Positions 33,232 to 60,692 of a stretch of 64,000 nt of DNA are shown here, piece by piece; positions within the stretch are counted from its first letter, which is position 1; every line of letters begins with the position of its first letter. A program made the position numbers and the translations under genes. Source of the DNA: a bacterium (lineage in GTDB: Bacteria; UBA8248); assembly GCA_963692865.2 (NCBI GenBank), contig OY843592.1, forward strand, positions 1,600,001-1,664,000, in the 5' to 3' direction. The notes beneath the pieces are model-generated. The model was not told the DNA's origin, ran no database searches, and saw only the letters and a list, made by a program, of their open reading frames with translations.

Positions 33232-33247
33232 CGCGGGGGGCGGGTCC

Positions 33248-33315
33248 AATTTCTGAAAAATTGGATAAAATTGTATAAATTCACGGGGTTTTTCGACAAA
33301 TTTCCGTAAATTTTC
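33248..33315 (-). repeat. AT-rich element with helically phased AATT tracts, copy 1
   Basis: Reverse complement GAAATTTGTCGAAAAACCCCGTGAATTTATACAATTTTATCCAATTTTTCAGAAATT aligns with 56078-56144. Confidence 0.7.
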
Positions 33316-33319
33316 GAGG

Positions 33320-33371
33320 GGAAATGCGGGGAATTGCGCGTGTGGGATGCGCGCAAATGCGGGCAAATGCG
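33320..33371. repeat. Two copies of the GCAAATGCGG-GCAAATGCG direct-repeat motif
   Basis: GGAAATGCGGGGAATTGCG at 33320 and GCAAATGCGGGCAAATGCG at 33353. Confidence 0.65.
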
Positions 33372-33465: not shown

Positions 33466-35139
33466 CTAGGCCCGCCCGTAACGGCGGCGGCGCCTGTTGA
33501 TGCCCTCCAGCTTGCGCGAGAGCTTCTCGAGCGTGCGGTCGTCGCTCAGGTTCCCTTCGATGTGGATATGGTAGACGTGCGAGCCGCTTCCGCCCATCTC
33601 TTCCCGTATCGCGTCGCGTATGATGGGCCGCACGCCGCGCTGGAAGAAGTCGATGGATTGGGGGTGGTTCACGTTCATGATGTGCTCGGGCCCCGCCTCG
33701 CCCACGAGCCTGAGCGCCGAGCGCTTGACGAAGCGCCCCGCCGCGTCGCCCTCGAAGACGGGGAGCGCTTTCAAATAGGCGTCGTAAAGCTCCGCGCCGA
33801 AATACCGCCGCACGCCTTTCTGGGGCGAGATGCCCGCCTTGCCGGCCGCCCGCTGGATGAGCTGAAAGGTCAGGCCCGCCTTTTCCATCAATGGAGGATC
33901 CACGCTCATCCGGCCTTCGTAGACCGCCTTGGGAAACGAGAGAAGCCGCGCTTCTTCCGCCACGCCGGTCTTGCGGAATTTATCCAGCGCGATGTACAGC
34001 CCGGCCGCCTGCGCGAGATTCGCTATTCCCATGGTGAAGGGCGTGGATCTTTTTCTGAAGCCCTTGAAGCCGAGGAAGGAGAGCACCTGCTTGATGGCCC
34101 CGCCCTTGTTGAACAGGACGTCGGTGAGCAGAAAAGCGCCCGCAGCCGGCCCGAAGGCGGCGAGCCCCGTGGCGCCCGCGAGCGCGGGGAGGGCACCCGC
34201 GACGTTGATGGCCAGGTTCGCCCCCGTCTTCAGGGTTTTCGGGCCGCTCAGGAAGTCCAGCGCCGAAAAAGCGACCCGCAAGGTCGCCGCCGCTTTCGTC
34301 GCCGCAATCCGCGCGGCCAGAGCGGCGCTCGCCTTTTCACCCGCGGCGGTGGCGATTGCCGTGCCGCCCAGGCGATTCGCCGCCTCGAGCTCGGAGACGG
34401 ACTGGAAAAGACGCATGAGTCCGGCTTCGCCGCCGATTTTCGCCAGCGGCACCACGAGTTCCGGCCCCGCCTCGCCGATCAGGCCCAGGGTGGGCTTTTT
34501 CACCAGGCCGCCCTTGGAGAAGCCGAACACATTGAGCAGGCCCTTGCCCACATCACCCAGCAGGTTCAGCCCCAAATCCTGGAGCGCGCCCACCGCGGGT
34601 TTGATGAATTGCGTGCTCGCCATCTCGGCGGCCGCGTTGCGCACCATGTCGATGGCGTGGTTTTTGAGGTCGCTGAACAGATCCTTGGCGCTTGCGATTT
34701 CGCCGGTGAGGACGCCCGAGAAGAACCGGGTGAGCGTTTGCTCGCTCGCCGAGGCGAAGTCGTTCACTGCCCTTCCGGCGATCCGAAAAGAGGCGGGCAA
34801 GTCCGCGGCTTTCCTTTTGACTTCGCCCAGGCCTCTCGCGAGCGGGCCGGAGCCGAGTCGGGAGCCTGCGCGTTCCGCATTCCTCCACAGGGTGTTCATA
34901 CCCTCGGCGGCGCGCATGGACGAGACGCCGACTCCTTCGAGTCTGTCTGCGGATTGAACGAAGGCGCGGCTCGACTTTTCGAGCGCGCTGCGGGAGCCGA
35001 GGGTTTGCGCCTGGAGTTTTTCCGTGGCGATTCTCGCCCGGCCCGCCGCCTTGGCGAATCGATCGAGCGTCTTGAGGCTGTTCCCGGAGTTCAGGTCTAT
35101 TTTCTTTATCACCGATATCTTGTGGACTTGCTCCGGCAT
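33466..35139 (-). CDS. Phage tail tape-measure-like protein (short, 557 aa)
   Basis: Ala/Gly-rich helical composition; FSKGGLV..PT..LIGEAGPELVVPL and a second VGEAGPE motif typical of tape-measure C-termini. Confidence 0.7.
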   Translation of the reverse strand: MPEQVHKISVIKKIDLNSGNSLKTLDRFAKAAGRARIATEKLQAQTLGSRSALEKSSRAFVQSADRLEGVGVSSMRAAEGMNTLWRNAERAGSRLGSGPLARGLGEVKRKAADLPASFRIAGRAVNDFASASEQTLTRFFSGVLTGEIASAKDLFSDLKNHAIDMVRNAAAEMASTQFIKPAVGALQDLGLNLLGDVGKGLLNVFGFSKGGLVKKPTLGLIGEAGPELVVPLAKIGGEAGLMRLFQSVSELEAANRLGGTAIATAAGEKASAALAARIAATKAAATLRVAFSALDFLSGPKTLKTGANLAINVAGALPALAGATGLAAFGPAAGAFLLTDVLFNKGGAIKQVLSFLGFKGFRKRSTPFTMGIANLAQAAGLYIALDKFRKTGVAEEARLLSFPKAVYEGRMSVDPPLMEKAGLTFQLIQRAAGKAGISPQKGVRRYFGAELYDAYLKALPVFEGDAAGRFVKRSALRLVGEAGPEHIMNVNHPQSIDFFQRGVRPIIRDAIREEMGGSGSHVYHIHIEGNLSDDRTLEKLSRKLEGINRRRRRYGRA

Positions 35140-35232: not shown

Positions 35233-35284
35233 AGTGTATCGGCGGCGGGAGAAGGCCGGGGTACGGCAAATGCGGGCAGTTGCG
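35233..35284 (-). promoter_or_regulatory. Putative activator-dependent promoter of the tape-measure-like gene
   Basis: Direct repeat at 35266-35284, then 27 nt, then TACACT (35233-35238, minus strand). Confidence 0.5.
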
Positions 35285-35336
35285 GGGTTTTGCGGGAGGG
35301 GTTCGGCAAAGTGGCGCGCGCCCCCGATTGTCCGCC

Positions 35337-35459
35337 CTAGTCCGCCCAGGGGTTGATGAAGTGCCACAGGTGGTTCGTGATGAGGCGCGGCTCGAAGGCC
35401 GCGACGACGCACAAGACGGCGGCTGCCGAGAAGAGCGCCGCGAGAAGGCGGGGAATCAT
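35337..35459 (-). CDS. Small 40-aa hydrophobic protein (absent from the ORF track)
   Basis: MIPRLLAALFSAAAVLCVVAAFEPRLITNHLWHFINPWAD*; ATGA overlap with the upstream gene stop. Confidence 0.55.
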   Translation of the reverse strand: MIPRLLAALFSAAAVLCVVAAFEPRLITNHLWHFINPWAD

Positions 35460-35839
35460 GGTTGACGCTCCTTGTTCAGGCGCTCGCCGAGTCTGGCGAG
35501 CGCGATTTCGACCGCGCGCAGGCGGCGCAGGATTTGCGCGAAGGCTTGCGCGTCCTCGCGCGTTTTTTTCACCGAGATCGCTTTCAGCTCACGGAATTCG
35601 AGGTCGGCAATCGTCTTCGCCTCGCGGAGTCGCGTCTCCACTTCCCGGAAGCGGACGCGCGCGCCCGCGTTTTTCTCCAAAAGCCAGGAGTGGCCCCGCT
35701 CGCTCATGTGGGCCGCCAGACGCGCCTCCACGTTCACGATCTGGTTGTAGAGCGGGGTGTAGGCGGCCACCCCGAGGCCGGCGATGCTCAGGATGGACAG
35801 GAAAATCTGGAGTCCTTTGCCGTTTCCCTCCGAAGCCAT
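35456..35839 (-). CDS. Phage-associated membrane-anchored coiled-coil protein
   Basis: MASEGNGK start overlapping the previous stop; one N-terminal hydrophobic segment followed by a helical region. Confidence 0.65.
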   Translation of the reverse strand: MASEGNGKGLQIFLSILSIAGLGVAAYTPLYNQIVNVEARLAAHMSERGHSWLLEKNAGARVRFREVETRLREAKTIADLEFRELKAISVKKTREDAQAFAQILRRLRAVEIALARLGERLNKERQP

Positions 35840-36534
35840 CAGCGCACCGCCTCGAAAGAGGCGGCGGCCTTCGCGAGTTTCGCATCCAGAGCCGCCACGC
35901 TCGCGGTGACGCTCGCATCCTGGGTGTCGCGTACGTACTCGTCGTAGATTTTTACGAGGGAGCCGAGCTTGCCGAGGAGCGCCGTTCTCCGGCTCGTCCA
36001 CTCATCCACCACGCTTTGGCCCGTCGCGTAGCGCGCCGGATAGGCGTCTTTTCTGTTTTTGATGAGCGAGAACCCCGGCTTGGCGAGCTTGTTCTCGTCG
36101 GAATCCTGCGCCCAGGCGTCGGCGAGTTTGGCCTTTTCCCCGTATTCGGCCAGTTTGCCGCCCAGAGCGCTCGTCGGCACGCCGACGACGCGCGCCTTGG
36201 CGCCGTTGAGCAGCAGATTGAGTTTCTCTTTCGCCTCGTCGCGGTGGATTTGCGCCACGCCGTCGGGCGCGTGCGCCGCATGAGCGGCGAGAACGGCGTC
36301 TCGCTGCGCACGGGTGCTCGAATCCGCCACGTGAATGACCCAAGTGTCAACCCCGGGGCCGTGGATTTCGGGGCGGGCGGATTCCGTCTCGCCGCGCCCG
36401 GGCCGCCAGTCGCCGTCAGGCGTCATGGCCGGTTTCAGCCGGTGCGCGCTGCCCAGGTAGATATCCGCGAGTCCGGCGGTTTCGAGTTCATCCCGAAAAT
36501 GCGGGCCGACCGCTTTTGTCACTTCGATTTCCAT
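35839..36534 (-). CDS. Phage hypothetical protein, possible tail-fibre assembly chaperone
   Basis: RBS GGAGG; follows the fibre-like gene; Ala-rich helical C-terminal half. Confidence 0.55.
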   Translation of the reverse strand: MEIEVTKAVGPHFRDELETAGLADIYLGSAHRLKPAMTPDGDWRPGRGETESARPEIHGPGVDTWVIHVADSSTRAQRDAVLAAHAAHAPDGVAQIHRDEAKEKLNLLLNGAKARVVGVPTSALGGKLAEYGEKAKLADAWAQDSDENKLAKPGFSLIKNRKDAYPARYATGQSVVDEWTSRRTALLGKLGSLVKIYDEYVRDTQDASVTASVAALDAKLAKAAASFEAVR

Positions 36535-36543
36535 GTTTGCCTC

Positions 36544-37485
36544 CTAAATCAAAACGACGCTTTGGAAGAGATAATCGCCGATGTTCAGGATGGTCGAACC
36601 CGCCACGCGAAAGACGAGCGTGGAGTGGACCTCGGCGAGCGCCCCTGTGTATATTCGCGTGTTCGCAATGGCGAAGTTGTCTTTCTCGTCGTTCGAGAGG
36701 CGGATGATTTCGACTTCCGGGTAGGCTTGTCCCGTCCCGTTGTACAACCCGAGATTCATATCCAGACCAACGAAGCCCGCGATGCTCGTCGAATTGACCC
36801 AGCCCTGTCCGCCCGCTTCCTGGCGGATGACGTCATGGCCCGGCCACATCAGGATTTCGTGCGTGGCGACGGAGGCCCATTTGGTGGACAGGGTGGTGGC
36901 GAGCGTTCCCTTGGCCTGGGCGGCGTATTCCGCCTTGTTCCAGAAACTTCTGACGTACACGTCGTTCGCGAGAACGAATTGCGACGAGGCGTCCGTTCTC
37001 GCGACCCCGACGAGGGTGCGGCTCTTGTCGTCCGTTTTGTGCGCCAGCCCCGTGGCGGCGTCGAACGCCCAGCTTCCCGTCCCGTCGAATTCGAGCTTGA
37101 GCGAGCCCCCGTCATCGTAGACGAAGACCGCATAGGAGCGGTTCGCCGCAAGGTCCGCGTTCGTTATCGTGATTCCCGCCCAGGGCAAATCCTCGTAGTA
37201 GACGTCTCCCGACGTTTCATCGATGAAGGGCACATGGCGGCCCGCTACGGGATTGACGACGGCGGGATAGTAGGCCGAACCCAGCGTCGGCCTGAACGCC
37301 AGGGTGGTGGCGTTCACGTAGTCGAGTCTGCCCGCGCATTGGATGGGTTGTCCGTTGGCCCTGATTTTTCCGTCCGGGAACAGCGCGGCGAGGGCCAGAC
37401 GGTCGATGACGCGGGCTTTCGTGGGGTGATGGCCGCCGATGGCTTCCTCGGTGTAGCGGGCGGACAGATCGGCTCCGATGGGCAT
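36544..37485 (-). CDS. Putative tail fibre or receptor-binding protein (313 aa)
   Basis: Start MPIGADL after AAGGAG; beta-rich Thr/Gly/Tyr composition; SRTLVGVART and VRSFWN segments resemble phage fibre domains. Confidence 0.55.
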   Translation of the reverse strand: MPIGADLSARYTEEAIGGHHPTKARVIDRLALAALFPDGKIRANGQPIQCAGRLDYVNATTLAFRPTLGSAYYPAVVNPVAGRHVPFIDETSGDVYYEDLPWAGITITNADLAANRSYAVFVYDDGGSLKLEFDGTGSWAFDAATGLAHKTDDKSRTLVGVARTDASSQFVLANDVYVRSFWNKAEYAAQAKGTLATTLSTKWASVATHEILMWPGHDVIRQEAGGQGWVNSTSIAGFVGLDMNLGLYNGTGQAYPEVEIIRLSNDEKDNFAIANTRIYTGALAEVHSTLVFRVAGSTILNIGDYLFQSVVLI

Positions 37486-37496
37486 CGTTTTCTCCT

Positions 37497-38708
37497 TCAG
37501 GCGTAGGTGGCGGCGTCGCGCTCGGCGCCCAGGAGCCAGCCGCCTTCGAGTGTTTTTGTCCCGTCCAGAAGAGGGGAGGACGTCAGGAAAAAGCCGGTGT
37601 CTCGAATTTTGAGTTCCATGCCCTGTTCGCCCAGGTCGTAGTTCACCTCGATCACCTCTCCGATTTGATTCAAGAGGGGTTCGAGTTTCTCCGAACGCAT
37701 CCAGAGCACGCTGAACGCCACGTAGTCGTCCGGTTCGACTTCGAGCGCTCTCAGGGAGCCGTCCTCGATGGTGATCATGCGGGTCGGCTCGTGATAGCGC
37801 GCCACGATGCGCGATTGAACCGTGGCGGCCACGCTCTCGCGCCGGACCCATTTGAGCCTGAGCGGGCTTTGAAGGGGTCTTCTGACGCCATAGAGCCTTT
37901 GGGAGGACGTGTTTTGAGTGGCGCTCCCATCGTCGTGTTTGATGTAGCGCGCGCCCAGATAATCCCTGGCATAGAGCGCCGGAGCCTGATTGATGATGGT
38001 GTCGCGCGCCACCTCCGCCTCGATGCGCGACTGGCCGAAGCGGGGCAAGACCTTTCGGGGTGAAACGGCGGAAGATTCGCCTCCGGCGATGTGGATTTTC
38101 AGGCGGCCGAACGGGTCGATTTCGTATCGCCCGAGGAAATCGCCCAGAAGCGCGGTGAGGACGTCGGCGGGCGCATGGTCGTCCAGAATGATCCCGCCCG
38201 CCCGGTAGCCGAGCGCATTCGCGCCGGCCGCCGCGCGCGCGAGGGCCTGCATGTCGATATCCTGCTCGCTGAACCCCCAGACGCTCGTCATGAGGTACTG
38301 AACGACCTCGGCGGGATTTTCGATGAGCGCGCCCGCCGCGCTCTTCCTGCCCTTGCATACGGCGGTCACGCGCCCCTTCGGCGGGGTGGTGAAAGCGGCG
38401 GTGGCGATGACGCCCCTGCCTTGATGGTTCCGTGCGAGTTCGAGCGTGTAGCCCTCCGGCTCGATGCGGCCGCTGTCGTCGAACAGGGTGACGCCGCCCG
38501 CGATCTCGTGCGCGGCCACGCAGTAGACGCCGCCGTCCGCGGCGTCGATTTTCGGCGGCGCGTAGACGCCTGTTTTCTCGCGCGGAGGGGTGGTCAGGTC
38601 CCCATAGATGATGGGGAGGCTCTGGTCTTCGAATTCAGGGGCGGCGTACCTGGAAGCGCGCCCTATCTGAAACGAATCCGACAGCCGGTCCGTCGTCGGG
38701 TCGGCCAT
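37497..38708 (-). CDS. Putative phage tail-tip or baseplate hub protein
   Basis: LPIIYGD and LIENPA motifs typical of tail-tip proteins; tightly coupled to its neighbours. Confidence 0.6.
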   Translation of the reverse strand: MADPTTDRLSDSFQIGRASRYAAPEFEDQSLPIIYGDLTTPPREKTGVYAPPKIDAADGGVYCVAAHEIAGGVTLFDDSGRIEPEGYTLELARNHQGRGVIATAAFTTPPKGRVTAVCKGRKSAAGALIENPAEVVQYLMTSVWGFSEQDIDMQALARAAAGANALGYRAGGIILDDHAPADVLTALLGDFLGRYEIDPFGRLKIHIAGGESSAVSPRKVLPRFGQSRIEAEVARDTIINQAPALYARDYLGARYIKHDDGSATQNTSSQRLYGVRRPLQSPLRLKWVRRESVAATVQSRIVARYHEPTRMITIEDGSLRALEVEPDDYVAFSVLWMRSEKLEPLLNQIGEVIEVNYDLGEQGMELKIRDTGFFLTSSPLLDGTKTLEGGWLLGAERDAATYA

Positions 38709-39242
38709 TCAGTTTCCCTCGCATTCAATCGTGACCGAGTCGATGCGCTCGATGATCCGGCGGATGGTGAAACTCCCGACAGAGAGAACGTCGGATATGT
38801 TTTGTCCCGAAAACCCGACGCGCACGTCGACCCTCCCGCCGATGAGCGGTTCCGTCGAGAGGATGCGGCTCATGCGCGGGTGGCCGTCCAGGTCGGGGGC
38901 GTTGTTGACGGCCATCGTGAGGCCGGAGAGTTCCTTTTCCCTGAATGCCTCGAGAACGGAGATGCCCTGAAACGCGCCCAGCGAGAAGCGGCCGCCGTCT
39001 TCTATCCAGTCATGGACGCCGAGGAGCACCTCCGCTCCCTCTCCGAGGAGGAAGGAGCCGTCGAGGACCCGGGAGCCGTCGAGGAAATGGATTCTTCCGC
39101 CTTGTCCGATCAGGGAACCGGGAACCTGCTTTCCGCAGAACACGCGCATTCCCCCGGCGGTGGAGAGGTGATAGAGGATGAAAGCCGTTTTCGCCTCGTG
39201 TCCGGCGATGTCGGCGACGGCCTGGTCCGTGGCGCGTTTCAT
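38709..39242 (-). CDS. Putative phage minor tail protein
   Basis: Overlapping start and stop with neighbours; LDGSRVLDGS motif. Confidence 0.55.
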   Translation of the reverse strand: MKRATDQAVADIAGHEAKTAFILYHLSTAGGMRVFCGKQVPGSLIGQGGRIHFLDGSRVLDGSFLLGEGAEVLLGVHDWIEDGGRFSLGAFQGISVLEAFREKELSGLTMAVNNAPDLDGHPRMSRILSTEPLIGGRVDVRVGFSGQNISDVLSVGSFTIRRIIERIDSVTIECEGN

Positions 39243-40318
39243 GCGAGTCTTTCCCTGAGCTCAAGCTCGAAGGAGAAATCATCCGGTCCCGTCTGGCGAG
39301 GCGAAAAGCCGCCCGCGAAATGGGCGAGAATGACCGAATCGGGGTCGTCCACGTCCAGATGAACGAAGAACGGCTTGGCCCGTCCTGCTTCGACGTCCTG
39401 CACCGTCCGGTACATGGTGAGAAATTGCTCGCGCTGTTCGTTCGATATGCGCTCATAGGGGAGGGTGGCCGCGCGGCCGCGATTCAGGAGCACCGGACGC
39501 TCCGCCATGTTTTCCGTGCGCCCCGCCTCCTCGAAGGATTCCTCCCCCACCACGCTTCCGAACCAGAAATGATCGTCGGGTTCAAAAAAGCCGCCCAGGT
39601 AGATTTCCGAGACTTCCAGATGCGCGTCATGCCCGGCGGGGCCGCCTTCGGCCACAAGACGCCAGTGGCGATACGAGCGCGGCGCGGCGGCGAGGTAGTG
39701 GATGAGGATGGCGCTGCGCCAGGTGAGCCTTTCATCGAGCGCGGGCGCGCGCCAGTCCGCGGATGCGTTCGCCTGAATCCTGAGCCTCGCGCCGCGCGGG
39801 AAATTGTGGAGATGGGCGATGAATACGTCGGGAGAGACCCGCGCGCCGAAATCGAGGGCGAGCGCCCAGGGATCTCCCGGCGGAGAAGCGCTTCTCATCC
39901 GCGTGGCGGGGTCGAGATCGTAAATTCTCTTTGGCGAGTGAAAGCGATTCGCCGTCGCCTGCCAATGATCTCCCAAAGCGAAAGCGGGTGAGTGCGGTCC
40001 ATTCACGAAACGGACCTTCACGCCTGAATCGAGGGCGACGTCCCTCAGTGCGGTGGGGATGTTCGAGGCTTCCCAGGCGCCTGCGGGAGTGGAGGTTTTG
40101 CGCCACTTGAAACGGGCGCTTCCGACGTCGCCCGGGGCGTCGATTTCCACGTAATAGACTTGCCCGTCGTCTCCGTCGTAGGCGCCGGAGAATATCATCG
40201 AGCCGCCCGCGCCCGCGACGCGGGGCACGCCCGCGCCGACATATCCCGTTTTGACGGAAGTGGCGGTGATGACCGTCTCGTCATCGATGAAGTTTCGATA
40301 CATGAAGCGATGTCCCAT
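39239..40318 (-). CDS. Putative distal-tail (Dit-like) phage protein with a beta-sandwich insert
   Basis: First gene of the cluster; Trp-rich beta region (LALDFG, RHWRL, LEVSEIYLG); ATG 40318 after GGAG. Confidence 0.55.
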   Translation of the reverse strand: MGHRFMYRNFIDDETVITATSVKTGYVGAGVPRVAGAGGSMIFSGAYDGDDGQVYYVEIDAPGDVGSARFKWRKTSTPAGAWEASNIPTALRDVALDSGVKVRFVNGPHSPAFALGDHWQATANRFHSPKRIYDLDPATRMRSASPPGDPWALALDFGARVSPDVFIAHLHNFPRGARLRIQANASADWRAPALDERLTWRSAILIHYLAAAPRSYRHWRLVAEGGPAGHDAHLEVSEIYLGGFFEPDDHFWFGSVVGEESFEEAGRTENMAERPVLLNRGRAATLPYERISNEQREQFLTMYRTVQDVEAGRAKPFFVHLDVDDPDSVILAHFAGGFSPRQTGPDDFSFELELRERLA

Positions 40319-40414
40319 TCCGATCTCCCGGGCGGGGAGTTCCACGTCGGGAAAACCCCTGGCTCCCGCCTTGTTTCGGCATCACTCCGGCGCAGGAGGG
40401 CGCCGGGGTCACCG

Positions 40415-40466
40415 AATATACGGAAATCGGGGGGGAGCGTTCGCCTCGCAAATGCGGGCAAATGCG
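40415..40466 (-). promoter_or_regulatory. Putative activator-dependent promoter of the tail gene operon
   Basis: Direct repeat GCAAATGCGGGCAAATGCG at 40448-40466, then 27 nt, then TATATT (40415-40420, minus strand). Confidence 0.5.
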
Positions 40467-40475
40467 TGGCAGAAA

Positions 40476-40841
40476 GGGGTTGTTGAAAAAGTCCTGATGA
40501 ACGGAGTGTTTTACGCGACCGGGGAGGAACGGTTTTTGTAGGTCAGACATATATGTCTGACATATCATGCGGCCCGCCTTGTGGAGGCGAAAATCAGGGC
40601 CGCATGATATGCGTGGGACAACCCCGAGGAGGGGTTGTCACCTACAAACAAATTGTCTCTCTCCGGCTTTTTCAACAGCCCCGAGAAAGGAGCGTTTGTA
40701 TCGAAGGGCTTGCCCGAGTCTGTCGAGGGGAGCGCTCCCCTTCTTGGCCGGCAATCGCTCCCGCATTGGTCGCGATTGACCTTCGATACGCGGCTTCGCC
40801 GCTAATCAGGATGAGGCGGAGAGGGCGTTTTCAACAACCCC
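40476..40841. repeat. Mosaic repeat cluster I, with an inverted-repeat-bounded unit at 40476-40682
   Basis: Arms are inverted copies of the 15107-15279 arms; 40750-40841 matches 14103-14194. Confidence 0.85.
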
Positions 40842-40866
40842 GTATGGGGGCGCCGGATATGGAAAT

Positions 40867-56002: not shown

Positions 56003-56077
56003 TCTTTTGGGCCTTCTCGCGCCCGTTTTTGACAAGAAACGGCGAAACGTTTTGTTTATCAGTAGTTTAAGCCTCAA

Positions 56078-56144
56078 GAAATTTATCGAAAAACCTCGTG
56101 AATTTATCCGAATTTATCTGAATTCATCGAATTTTTCAGGAATT
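56078..56144 (+). repeat. AT-rich element with helically phased AATT tracts, copy 2
   Basis: GAATTTATCC GAATTTATCT GAATTCATC GAATTTTTC units; similar to 33248-33315. Confidence 0.7.
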
Positions 56145-56285
56145 CGCCGTTTTTGAAAAACGGACGGCCCATGGTATCGCAGGGCGATCCTGCCATGCGC
56201 CCGGGAAACCGCCGCGACGCCAAATGCGGGCAAATGCGCCTGACCCGTAATCGGGAGCGGTCGTTTTTCGAGAGTGCGCGGCGCG

Positions 56286-60546: not shown

Positions 60547-60692
60547 TTCGAGGGTTTCAATATTTTCAGGCATCAGGGTTTTTCGGAAGATCGATCCGCC
60601 TCGTGGGGCAGGGGAATCCGCCATCGGCCTGGAACGCCCGCCATGGTCCGAGTGCGGGCAAATGCGCACCCGGAATGGAGCGCGTTTGCGCC

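Follow-up and report, generated by a model that had tools for sequence, protein, structure and literature searches.

A shared repeat and -10 layout heads the virion and lysis operons of a putative gene transfer agent and points to a candidate activator

Which factor switches on the tail genes found in a 64,000-nucleotide stretch of a bacterial chromosome (contig OY843592.1 of assembly GCA_963692865.2, positions 1,600,001 to 1,664,000; hereafter the window), and does it act on these genes only? The question is raised by the two tail transcription units of the window, each of which is preceded on the minus strand by a direct repeat of tandem 10-11-bp units and by a -10 hexamer. At the first site, CGCATTTGCCCGCATTTGC (40466-40448) is followed after 27 nt by TATATT (40420-40415) and after a further 96 nt by the ATG at 40318. 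At the second site, CGCAACTGCCCGCATTTGC (35284-35266) is followed after 27 nt by TACACT (35238-35233) and after 93 nt by the ATG at 35139. Reading of the two spacers (sites 40466 and 35284) revealed no TTGACA-like hexamer at the -35 position. When the hexamer is taken as -12 to -7, the repeat site covers about -58 to -40. A sequence-only reading of the window had pointed out this layout, and our analysis reproduced it exactly at both sites. That reading counted two sites, but the window holds further copies of the motif at 33371, 33338 and 56238, and a weak one at 60666.

We searched the source genome (G000; 4.15 Mb, 97% complete) for the 19-mer motif; the gene calls in this analysis are our own, are 73% coding and miss some genes. 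The motif occurs in 102 copies with two or fewer mismatches. The hexamer NANNNT stands exactly 27 nt downstream in 60 of the 102 copies, compared with 3.7 expected per offset, and TANNNT in 28 of them, compared with 0.35; small side peaks are seen at offsets 26 and 37. A weight matrix gave 98 matches at a score of 22 or more, and none in a Markov simulation. Because many of the copies are related, the spacers were clustered: the 72 strong promoters group into 32 spacer families unrelated to each other, with a spacing of 27 nt in 63, 26 nt in 7 and 28 nt in 2. The sequence-only reading had stated that an abundant repeat with random spacing would speak against a common function. The motif is indeed abundant, but its spacing to the hexamer is fixed. 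Within the motif CGCA does not vary, and TTCC often replaces the first TTGC.

With a joint matrix for motif and hexamer, 76 promoters were obtained in G000. Six of them head virion or lysis operons, 63 face an AT-rich array within 600 nt, and the remaining seven are element variants, weak matches, the promoter of a GntR gene and an rRNA promoter. Most copies of the motif in the genome fall within repeated intergenic elements, which are described below.

The scan that the sequence-only reading had proposed, for the motif upstream of phage genes, gave a clear result: all six virion and lysis operons are headed by the motif, 27 nt and a -10 hexamer. These are the lysis operon (endolysin, holin), a 110-aa gene followed by a Mu gp27-like small terminase gene (terS), the operon of the large terminase (terL) and portal, the operon running from protease/capsid through neck to tail tube, the tail-tip operon (40466) and the tape-measure gene (35284). 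The virion identities were assigned by PHROG and Pfam matches, and the large terminase belongs to the lambda gpA family. No array was found within 600 nt downstream of the six virion promoters. The modules lie at C1:1.63, 2.78 and 3.87-3.92 Mb, with host genes on their flanks. Thus the virion genes are spread across 2.3 Mb, and a particle would be unable to carry all its own genes.

Among the tail genes of the window, the tape-measure gene is the only one with a confident family match. The homologs of the genes at 39239-40318 and 37497-38708 come after the tape-measure gene in a Mu-like prophage of G027, and the label 'tail' is therefore fair for the window genes. Queries with transposase A, B and Gam of the G027 prophage gave no match in G000, no family-level search having been made, and a G027 query for the head-morphogenesis (gpF) homolog gave none in G000 either.

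From these results we think that the motif very likely defines a regulon. The earlier proposal of a dedicated activator holds in so far as the promoters are of the activator type, have a fixed spacing and are shared by the tail genes, but the regulon is not tail-specific, since it takes in six operons and 63 element promoters.

The genes and their promoters were compared among relatives. The capsid, first tail and tape-measure genes are single-copy in 20 of the 22 genus genomes and in G024, and were missed in G009 and G010. The same host genes flank them in four divergent genomes (G019, G001, G015 and part of G007), and the dN/dS values of 0.20-0.24 for four genes indicate purifying selection. 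The 40466 promoter is kept in all 20 genus relatives that have the gene, 14 at a spacing of 27 and 6 at 26. Over 21 sequences, its motif shows 99% column identity, compared with 79% in the spacer and 59% upstream. As for the 35284 promoter, 6 of 20 relatives retain it (4 with the full site, 2 with one half-site) and 14 lack it; in 12 of those 14 the tape-measure gene joins the upstream operon. That is, the 35284 promoter is dispensable.

The strict promoter pattern is present in 18 of the 22 genomes, and is found neither in a reversed control nor in G009 and G010. When two mismatches were allowed, G009 had no site and G010 had seven, all at two mismatches and beside relics of the portal gene and terS; G015 and G019 had four sites each, mostly at virion genes, the good ones being virion promoters; and G024 had nine of a drifted type. 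The drifted motif, with the same 27-nt spacing, heads the capsid and tail genes in G024 and each of three terS-like genes in G023 (L190, L191, L192), a genome in which neither capsid nor tail genes were found. The distant relatives L266 and L268 have TTTGC-27 nt-TATATT before the terS operon. In G010 (L211) the relics of the portal gene and terS, like the decayed motifs, stand at their ancestral positions, and the lysis, terL and gp26-like genes are deleted. G010 is thus a recent loss of the system.

On these genomic grounds the system is a candidate gene transfer agent (GTA): it comprises tailed-phage head, portal, terminase, tail and lysis genes, which are vertically inherited in single copy at fixed positions under purifying selection.

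The regulator had been predicted to lie outside the window, and this is where our best candidate is found. It is a 129-aa gene (G000:C1:3922429-3922818), the second gene of an operon that encodes two proteins, of 81 and 129 aa, and directly precedes the lysis module. The gene is present in the same 20 of 22 genus genomes as the virion genes (missed in G009 and G010), and also in G023. The operon keeps its place upstream of the lysis/terS module across the family, as found by synteny in G019 and G015, and this position is retained in groundwater and marine relatives labelled Nitrospinota or Candidatus Tectomicrobia. In the 19 genomes examined, the operon has a consensus promoter TTGACA-17-TATATT with a palindrome just behind it, which is the putative operator of this early promoter. 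A matrix scan for a second copy of the operator gave no clear site. In all of the 19 but G019, an IHF-like site and an array are also present in the leader; this array is the master copy of the dispersed ones.

The 129-aa protein gave no Pfam or PHROG match, HTH_17 and Phage_Cox included. Its AlphaFold model is of moderate quality (mean pLDDT 67.8), and the top structural matches in VIA were excisionases, the DNA-binding domain of lambda gpNu1, RdfS, Rpp, BldC and Cox, at Z values of 5.0-6.0, which are in the weak range. The best root-mean-square deviations were 2.1-2.4 over 52-57 residues, and 7 of the top 9 rows were excisionases, gpNu1, Rpp, BldC or Cox. Foldseek gave a probability of 0.75 with an E value of 0.53, and the top match in the ESM Atlas was an excisionase (0.90). 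The 129-aa protein is thus predicted to have a winged-helix fold of the Xis/BldC/Cox type. A deep homolog search gave only four clusters, three of them related; a PDB sequence search gave nothing; and IMG/VR held no phage relatives of the candidate or of the motif. The 81-aa partner had no informative match in the ESM Atlas.

A candidate repressor for the early promoter is also present. An orphan CI-type gene (C1:2782944-2783678) encodes an XRE helix-turn-helix and an S24 domain (PF00717, E 1.7e-11; PHROG 4, E 6.7e-40), in which the Ala-Gly, Ser and Lys motifs were read by eye. It occurs in 19 of the 22 genus genomes and was missed in G009, G010 and the 79%-complete G017.

Other regulators were considered and set aside. 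A Mor/C activator (PF08765) is found in none of 25 family genomes. Of the five HTH_17 genes of G000, one is a response-regulator fusion and one is HspR, and the rest belong to other mobile or toxin modules; the fusion is apparently present in G010 too, judged by frame length alone. Alternative sigma factors number 4, 5, 4, 4 and 4 in five genomes, with no drop in G009 or G010.

We think it probable that the repeat is the binding site of the system's own late activator, most likely the 129-aa excisionase-type protein. The circuit would work as follows. The CI-type repressor would sit on the palindrome behind TTGACA-17-TATATT and hold the operon of the 81-aa and 129-aa genes off, until its cleavage by activated RecA relieves the early operon. 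Two protomers of the 129-aa protein would then bind head-to-tail at about -58 to -40, one per helical turn, and bring sigma-70 RNA polymerase to promoters with a -10 and without a -35. Lysis, terS, terL-portal, capsid-neck-tube, tail tip (40466) and, where its promoter is kept, tape measure (35284) would be switched on jointly, and the outcome would be tailed particles unable to carry their own genes. The 129-aa protein might also polymerise on the weaker phased array with its IHF-like site in its own leader and damp its own synthesis, as P2 Cox does. The about 68 chromosomal arrays would be later expansions that fire with the regulon, and they may soak up the activator or mark DNA for packaging.

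Several points weigh against this circuit. The co-occurrence of gene and motif suits all genes of the system just as well, among them the 81-aa gene and the 110-aa gene that precedes terS, and, because the relatives are kin and not independent, it amounts to two losses and gives no statistic. The 129-aa gene was not found in the motif-bearing G024 (87% complete, 560 contigs), and G023 combines motif, regulator and terS with no capsid or tail genes found. The protein lacks a Pfam or PHROG match, its fold matches are weak and common to the packaging proteins gpNu1 and Rpp, and terL is of the lambda gpA family. The recognition helix has changed in G001 and G007 with the late motif unchanged, so that binding to the arrays fits better than binding to the motif; G004, among the matches listed, has a different dispersed array yet an unchanged helix. 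The rRNA promoter of G000 carries a near-perfect motif at 27 nt, which a late activator does not explain. Finally, the CI-type gene is linked to the palindrome by co-occurrence only.

Some of these points concern the dispersed arrays. A profile search gave 70 array matches in G000, all between called genes and a median of 52 kb apart; 23 of the 70 lie between convergent genes. The arrays are made of 10-bp units, as a rule three or four on the upstream side of a fixed anchor, and an IHF-like site lies downstream in 37 of 69, compared with 9.2 in shuffles, with the mode at offset 12. Promoters face the arrays from either side, most of the about 68 chromosomal arrays having repeat-promoters facing them, and bare repeat units often close an element, as at 33320-33371. 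The units of motif and array have a common ATTT core and follow a single 10.6-bp phase at 33241-33371. Some copies of the element are nearly the same in sequence, and rearrangement junctions are marked by elements. In several other genomes such a junction lies at the site behind the tape-measure gene; in four divergent ones this site is empty. Near-identical pairs of elements, inverted and enclosing 5-14 kb, were seen at C1:1369020/1383257, 2042994/2057466 and 2203607/2209187.

The G000-type array occurs in 32-65 copies in 16 genomes and in 3 copies in G004, and is absent from the other 24 of the 41 genomes. Among the matches listed, G007, G004 and G001 have elements of the same plan with unit sequences of their own, and in G007 the leader array and the dispersed arrays have a common G007-specific unit, the recognition helix of the 129-aa protein being changed there. 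For seven of the 23 non-virion elements of G007, G004 and G001, the adjoining gene has an array in G000 as well, which is true of 4.6% of genes. This suggests that some positions are old while the sequence changes in concert.

Two other explanations of the arrays were tried. Small proteins encoded by the elements are rejected: a frame led by a ribosome-binding site runs through the array in the common frame in only 11 of 44 forward elements, and the arrays differ by whole 10-bp units. TerS as the reader of the arrays is not supported, because its hypervariable helix changes among genomes with unchanged arrays (G011 vs G012). Residues 44-53 of TerS (L003:4403-4972) have a pN/pS of 0.90, compared with 0.16 for residues 55-190, over 16 genomes, and position 48 holds six different residues; the selection there is relaxed or diversifying.

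The arrays allow a different division of labour, in which another protein (the 81-aa partner, the product of the 110-aa gene or a host factor) activates the regulon and the 129-aa protein binds the AT-rich arrays only, either repressing its own gene or serving as a DNA-recognition subunit of the gpNu1/Rpp kind. With such a subunit, packaging would start at the about 68 arrays and their IHF-like sites, opened by their promoters. The loading site of the lambda gpA terminase consists of IHF plus repeated sites, and the excess of IHF-like sites after intergenic arrays 52 kb apart, together with a gpA-family terminase, would fit this. The gpNu1 domain and the island protein Rpp rank second and fourth among the VIA matches, tied with excisionases; the changes of the helix track the array type in G001 and G007; and the seven shared positions of elements point in the same direction. 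However, the 129-aa gene stands behind a consensus early promoter and operator, unlike terS and terL with their late motif, and a separate terS exists. The common ATTT core and single phase of motif and array units also argue against a protein that reads the arrays only, and G019 and G015 keep the gene and the virion set without the G000-type dispersed array and with few motif sites. We regard this explanation as rather unlikely.

The rRNA promoter raises another explanation, namely that the repeat is a lineage-specific UP-like element or host-factor site, bound by the polymerase alpha subunit or a general activator and merely used by the phage genes. At the rRNA promoter of G000 (L119; C1:512661, minus strand), the near-perfect motif CGCATTTGCAGGCATTTGC stands 27 nt before the -10, beside TTGACA, and partial versions are seen in several relatives; the motif also has the position of an UP element and two A/T tracts one turn apart. 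Yet it is degenerate or absent at the rRNA promoters of most relatives, including G015 and G019, which keep the virion copies, and no enrichment was found upstream of 244 consensus-like intergenic promoters. The motif is also lost genome-wide in G009 and decayed in G010, and a constitutive element before endolysin and holin would be costly. We therefore consider such an element improbable.

That the motif is the end of a repeated selfish element, from insertions of which the virion operons got their promoters without common control, is very improbable and is already largely refuted by G015, G019 and G024: 63 of the 76 promoters do lie in repeated, in part near-identical and junction-marking elements, but no array follows the six virion promoters within 600 nt, their place is conserved both in the genus and in other genera, G015 and G019 have the motif almost nowhere else, and the -10 spacing is held across unrelated spacers.

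The OmpR/PhoB-family response regulator with which the sequence-only reading had compared the activator is hardly credible either. Two direct repeats one helical turn apart without a -35 would suit such a protein, but pho boxes overlap the -35, while here 27 nt separate the repeat from the -10, which puts the site upstream of the -35. OmpR-type domains number 4, 3, 2, 2 and 2 in G000, G009, G010, G019 and G001, that is, they are not reduced in G009 or G010 (counts only, orthology aside); the motif follows the phage genes, and the protein that tracks it has the predicted excisionase fold. The comparison is not supported.

We compared the system, with the 129-aa protein as the preferred activator, with known ones. 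To our knowledge, few GTAs have a known control circuit. The best-studied direct activators, GafA and GafY-GafZ, are from Alphaproteobacteria, GafA being reportedly the direct activator of RcGTA. The Caulobacter agent CcGTA is described in PMC11150451 as controlled by GafY, IHF and the antiterminator GafZ. As in the GTAs with GafA or GafY-GafZ, the virion genes here are fixed in the host at several loci and would be switched on jointly, IHF is implicated, and linked replication or integration genes were not found. The system differs from RcGTA and CcGTA in phage ancestry (Mu-like prophage homologs, lambda-type split terL) and in having six operons, each with its own promoter, instead of one cluster with antitermination. 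It differs further in its candidate activator of excisionase fold, its retained CI-type repressor and its about 68 dispersed arrays. From CcGTA, in particular, it differs in ancestry, layout and regulator type.

Of the phage activators, Mu C resembles the candidate in its promoters. According to the part of PMC12867686 that concerns them, the late promoters of MuC combine a -10 with an upstream activator site and lack a -35, and C binds inverted TTAT-N5-6-ATAA. Several late promoters with these properties are common to both systems; the difference is that the repeat here is direct and that a search of 25 family genomes gave no Mor/C-family gene. The lambda CII site, TTGC-N6-TTGC, flanks the -35. 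The best copies of our motif contain TTGC-N6-TTGC, but the site ends 27 nt before the -10 and its invariant letters are CGCA.

The candidate itself resembles the Cox type, of which 186 Apl is an oligomeric winged-helix relative. For P2 Cox, the relevant part of PMC3936717 describes boxes 10-11 bp apart, autoregulation and activation of P4 PLL; for RdfS and BldC, that of PMC11963761 describes head-to-tail binding and, for RdfS, the activation of promoters. The 129-aa protein is like Cox, Apl, RdfS and BldC in its predicted fold, in being encoded by an early gene behind a promoter that would be repressed, and in having A/T-rich boxes 10-11 bp apart downstream of its own promoter. Unlike Cox, RdfS and BldC, it has two insertions and no Pfam HTH_17 or Cox match. 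Members of that group serve the excision of mobile elements or activate a satellite, whereas here there is no linked integrase and the proposed targets are the system's own late genes.

With respect to packaging, lambda cosB consists of gpNu1 sites plus IHF. The arrays are similar to it, and to the Rpp system of phage-inducible chromosomal islands, in their repeated sites and IHF-like site, the gpA-family terminase and the gpNu1/Rpp fold match; in contrast, there are dozens of chromosomal copies here, each with its own promoter, and no nicking site was identified. Like E. coli BIME-1/RIB, the arrays are intergenic repeats that are scattered over the chromosome, have an IHF site and frequently lie between convergent genes, but their core has no repetitive extragenic palindromic (REP) sequences, and they have regulon promoters and a master copy in the leader of the regulator. 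The part of PMC7947584 that deals with the RcGTA small terminase states that it binds DNA non-specifically and that no packaging start sites were found. Programmed sites in the present system would therefore be a departure.

If the preferred reading is correct, an excisionase-type protein has turned into the late activator of a domesticated phage, and the dozens of activator-driven arrays would be a built-in lysis threshold or programmed packaging sites. No description of a GTA with either, or of this system in its lineage, was found in the literature searched, most subscription papers and supplements lying outside the search. The most far-reaching version is an independently domesticated GTA that has retained the whole cascade of a phage (a repressor cleavable by RecA, an activator of excisionase fold and six late promoters) and packages from about 68 chromosomal arrays, each with an IHF site and opened by its own late promoters, the sites having spread because they are packaged. 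We hold this version to be unlikely; if true, the chromosome would be written for its own transduction, unlike the random packaging of known GTAs. In any case, sequence by itself has yielded candidates for every part of a circuit, namely repressor, operator, activator and six target promoters, in an uncultured family related to Nitrospinota/Tectomicrobia.

The features of the window are listed in Table 1.

Table 1. Positions of promoter sites, dispersed elements and tail-region genes in the window
Feature	Position	Strand	Remarks
Putative activator site, tail-tip operon	40448-40466	-	two head-to-tail 10-bp units CGCATTTGCC CGCATTTGC, about -58 to -40
-10 hexamer TATATT	40415-40420	-	27 nt 3' of repeat; without -35 consensus
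Second repeat site CGCAACTGCC CGCATTTGC	35266-35284	-	partial third unit at 35285-35294; kept in 6/20 relatives
-10 hexamer TACACT	35233-35238	-	27 nt 3' of repeat
First gene of tail-tip operon, 359 aa	39239-40318	-	no PHROG match at E<0.01, no Pfam match; 20/22 genus genomes; median dN/dS 0.24
Tail-region gene, 177 aa	38709-39242	-	conserved, syntenic
Tail-region gene, 403 aa	37497-38708	-	homologs in tail regions of G027 and G032 prophages; no solved relative by sequence
Gene of 313 aa, likely tail fibre or adhesin (from position)	36544-37485	-	
Tail operon gene, 231 aa	35839-36534	-	
Two small genes, 127 aa and 40 aa	35337-35839	-	hydrophobic N-termini
Tape-measure-like gene, 557 aa	33466-35139	-	PHROG 1535, E 1.2e-5; 20/22 genus genomes; median dN/dS 0.23
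Four more repeat units without -10, one end of dispersed element	33320-33371	-	directly after tape-measure gene
AT-rich 10-bp-phased array, element core	33241-33316	+	one helical phase with repeat units; site empty in G001, G007, G015, G019
Promoter of second dispersed element: repeat, 27 nt, CAGGAT	56187-56238	-	
AT-rich phased array of second element	56055-56146	-	one extra 10-bp unit

Some minor observations were made on the virion modules. Directly upstream of the 40466 promoter, the window at 40480-40860 holds nested palindromic repeats like REP sequences or miniature inverted-repeat transposable elements, at very high repeat depth, and its sequence differs in most relatives. The contig depth is flat across the tail genes and uninformative. 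ATPase and nuclease of the large terminase are encoded by separate genes that overlap stop to start (L002:4575-6238), the split being at the same place in all six genomes checked. A gene recognised by eye as CdaA-like (diadenylate cyclase; L001:10672-11964) is divergent from the capsid promoter in all genomes viewed. In the Mu-like prophage of G027 (L086:11500-11860), an HTH_17 gene stands directly before a lysis promoter with three CGGACA repeats 9 bp apart, possibly a parallel use of the fold as a late activator.

Two further observations concern the early operon. G022 (L225, L235) has two copies of the 129-aa gene within 2 kb, of which the second lacks the early promoter. Between the array and the 81-aa gene lies a structured leader of 130-146 nt (L213; C1 about 3923100-3923232, minus strand), which had no Rfam match above noise. 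A 12-pair stem closes it, in which five positions show two-sided changes over 16 sequences; these were picked by pattern and are thus biased. The leader is possibly a translational control element.

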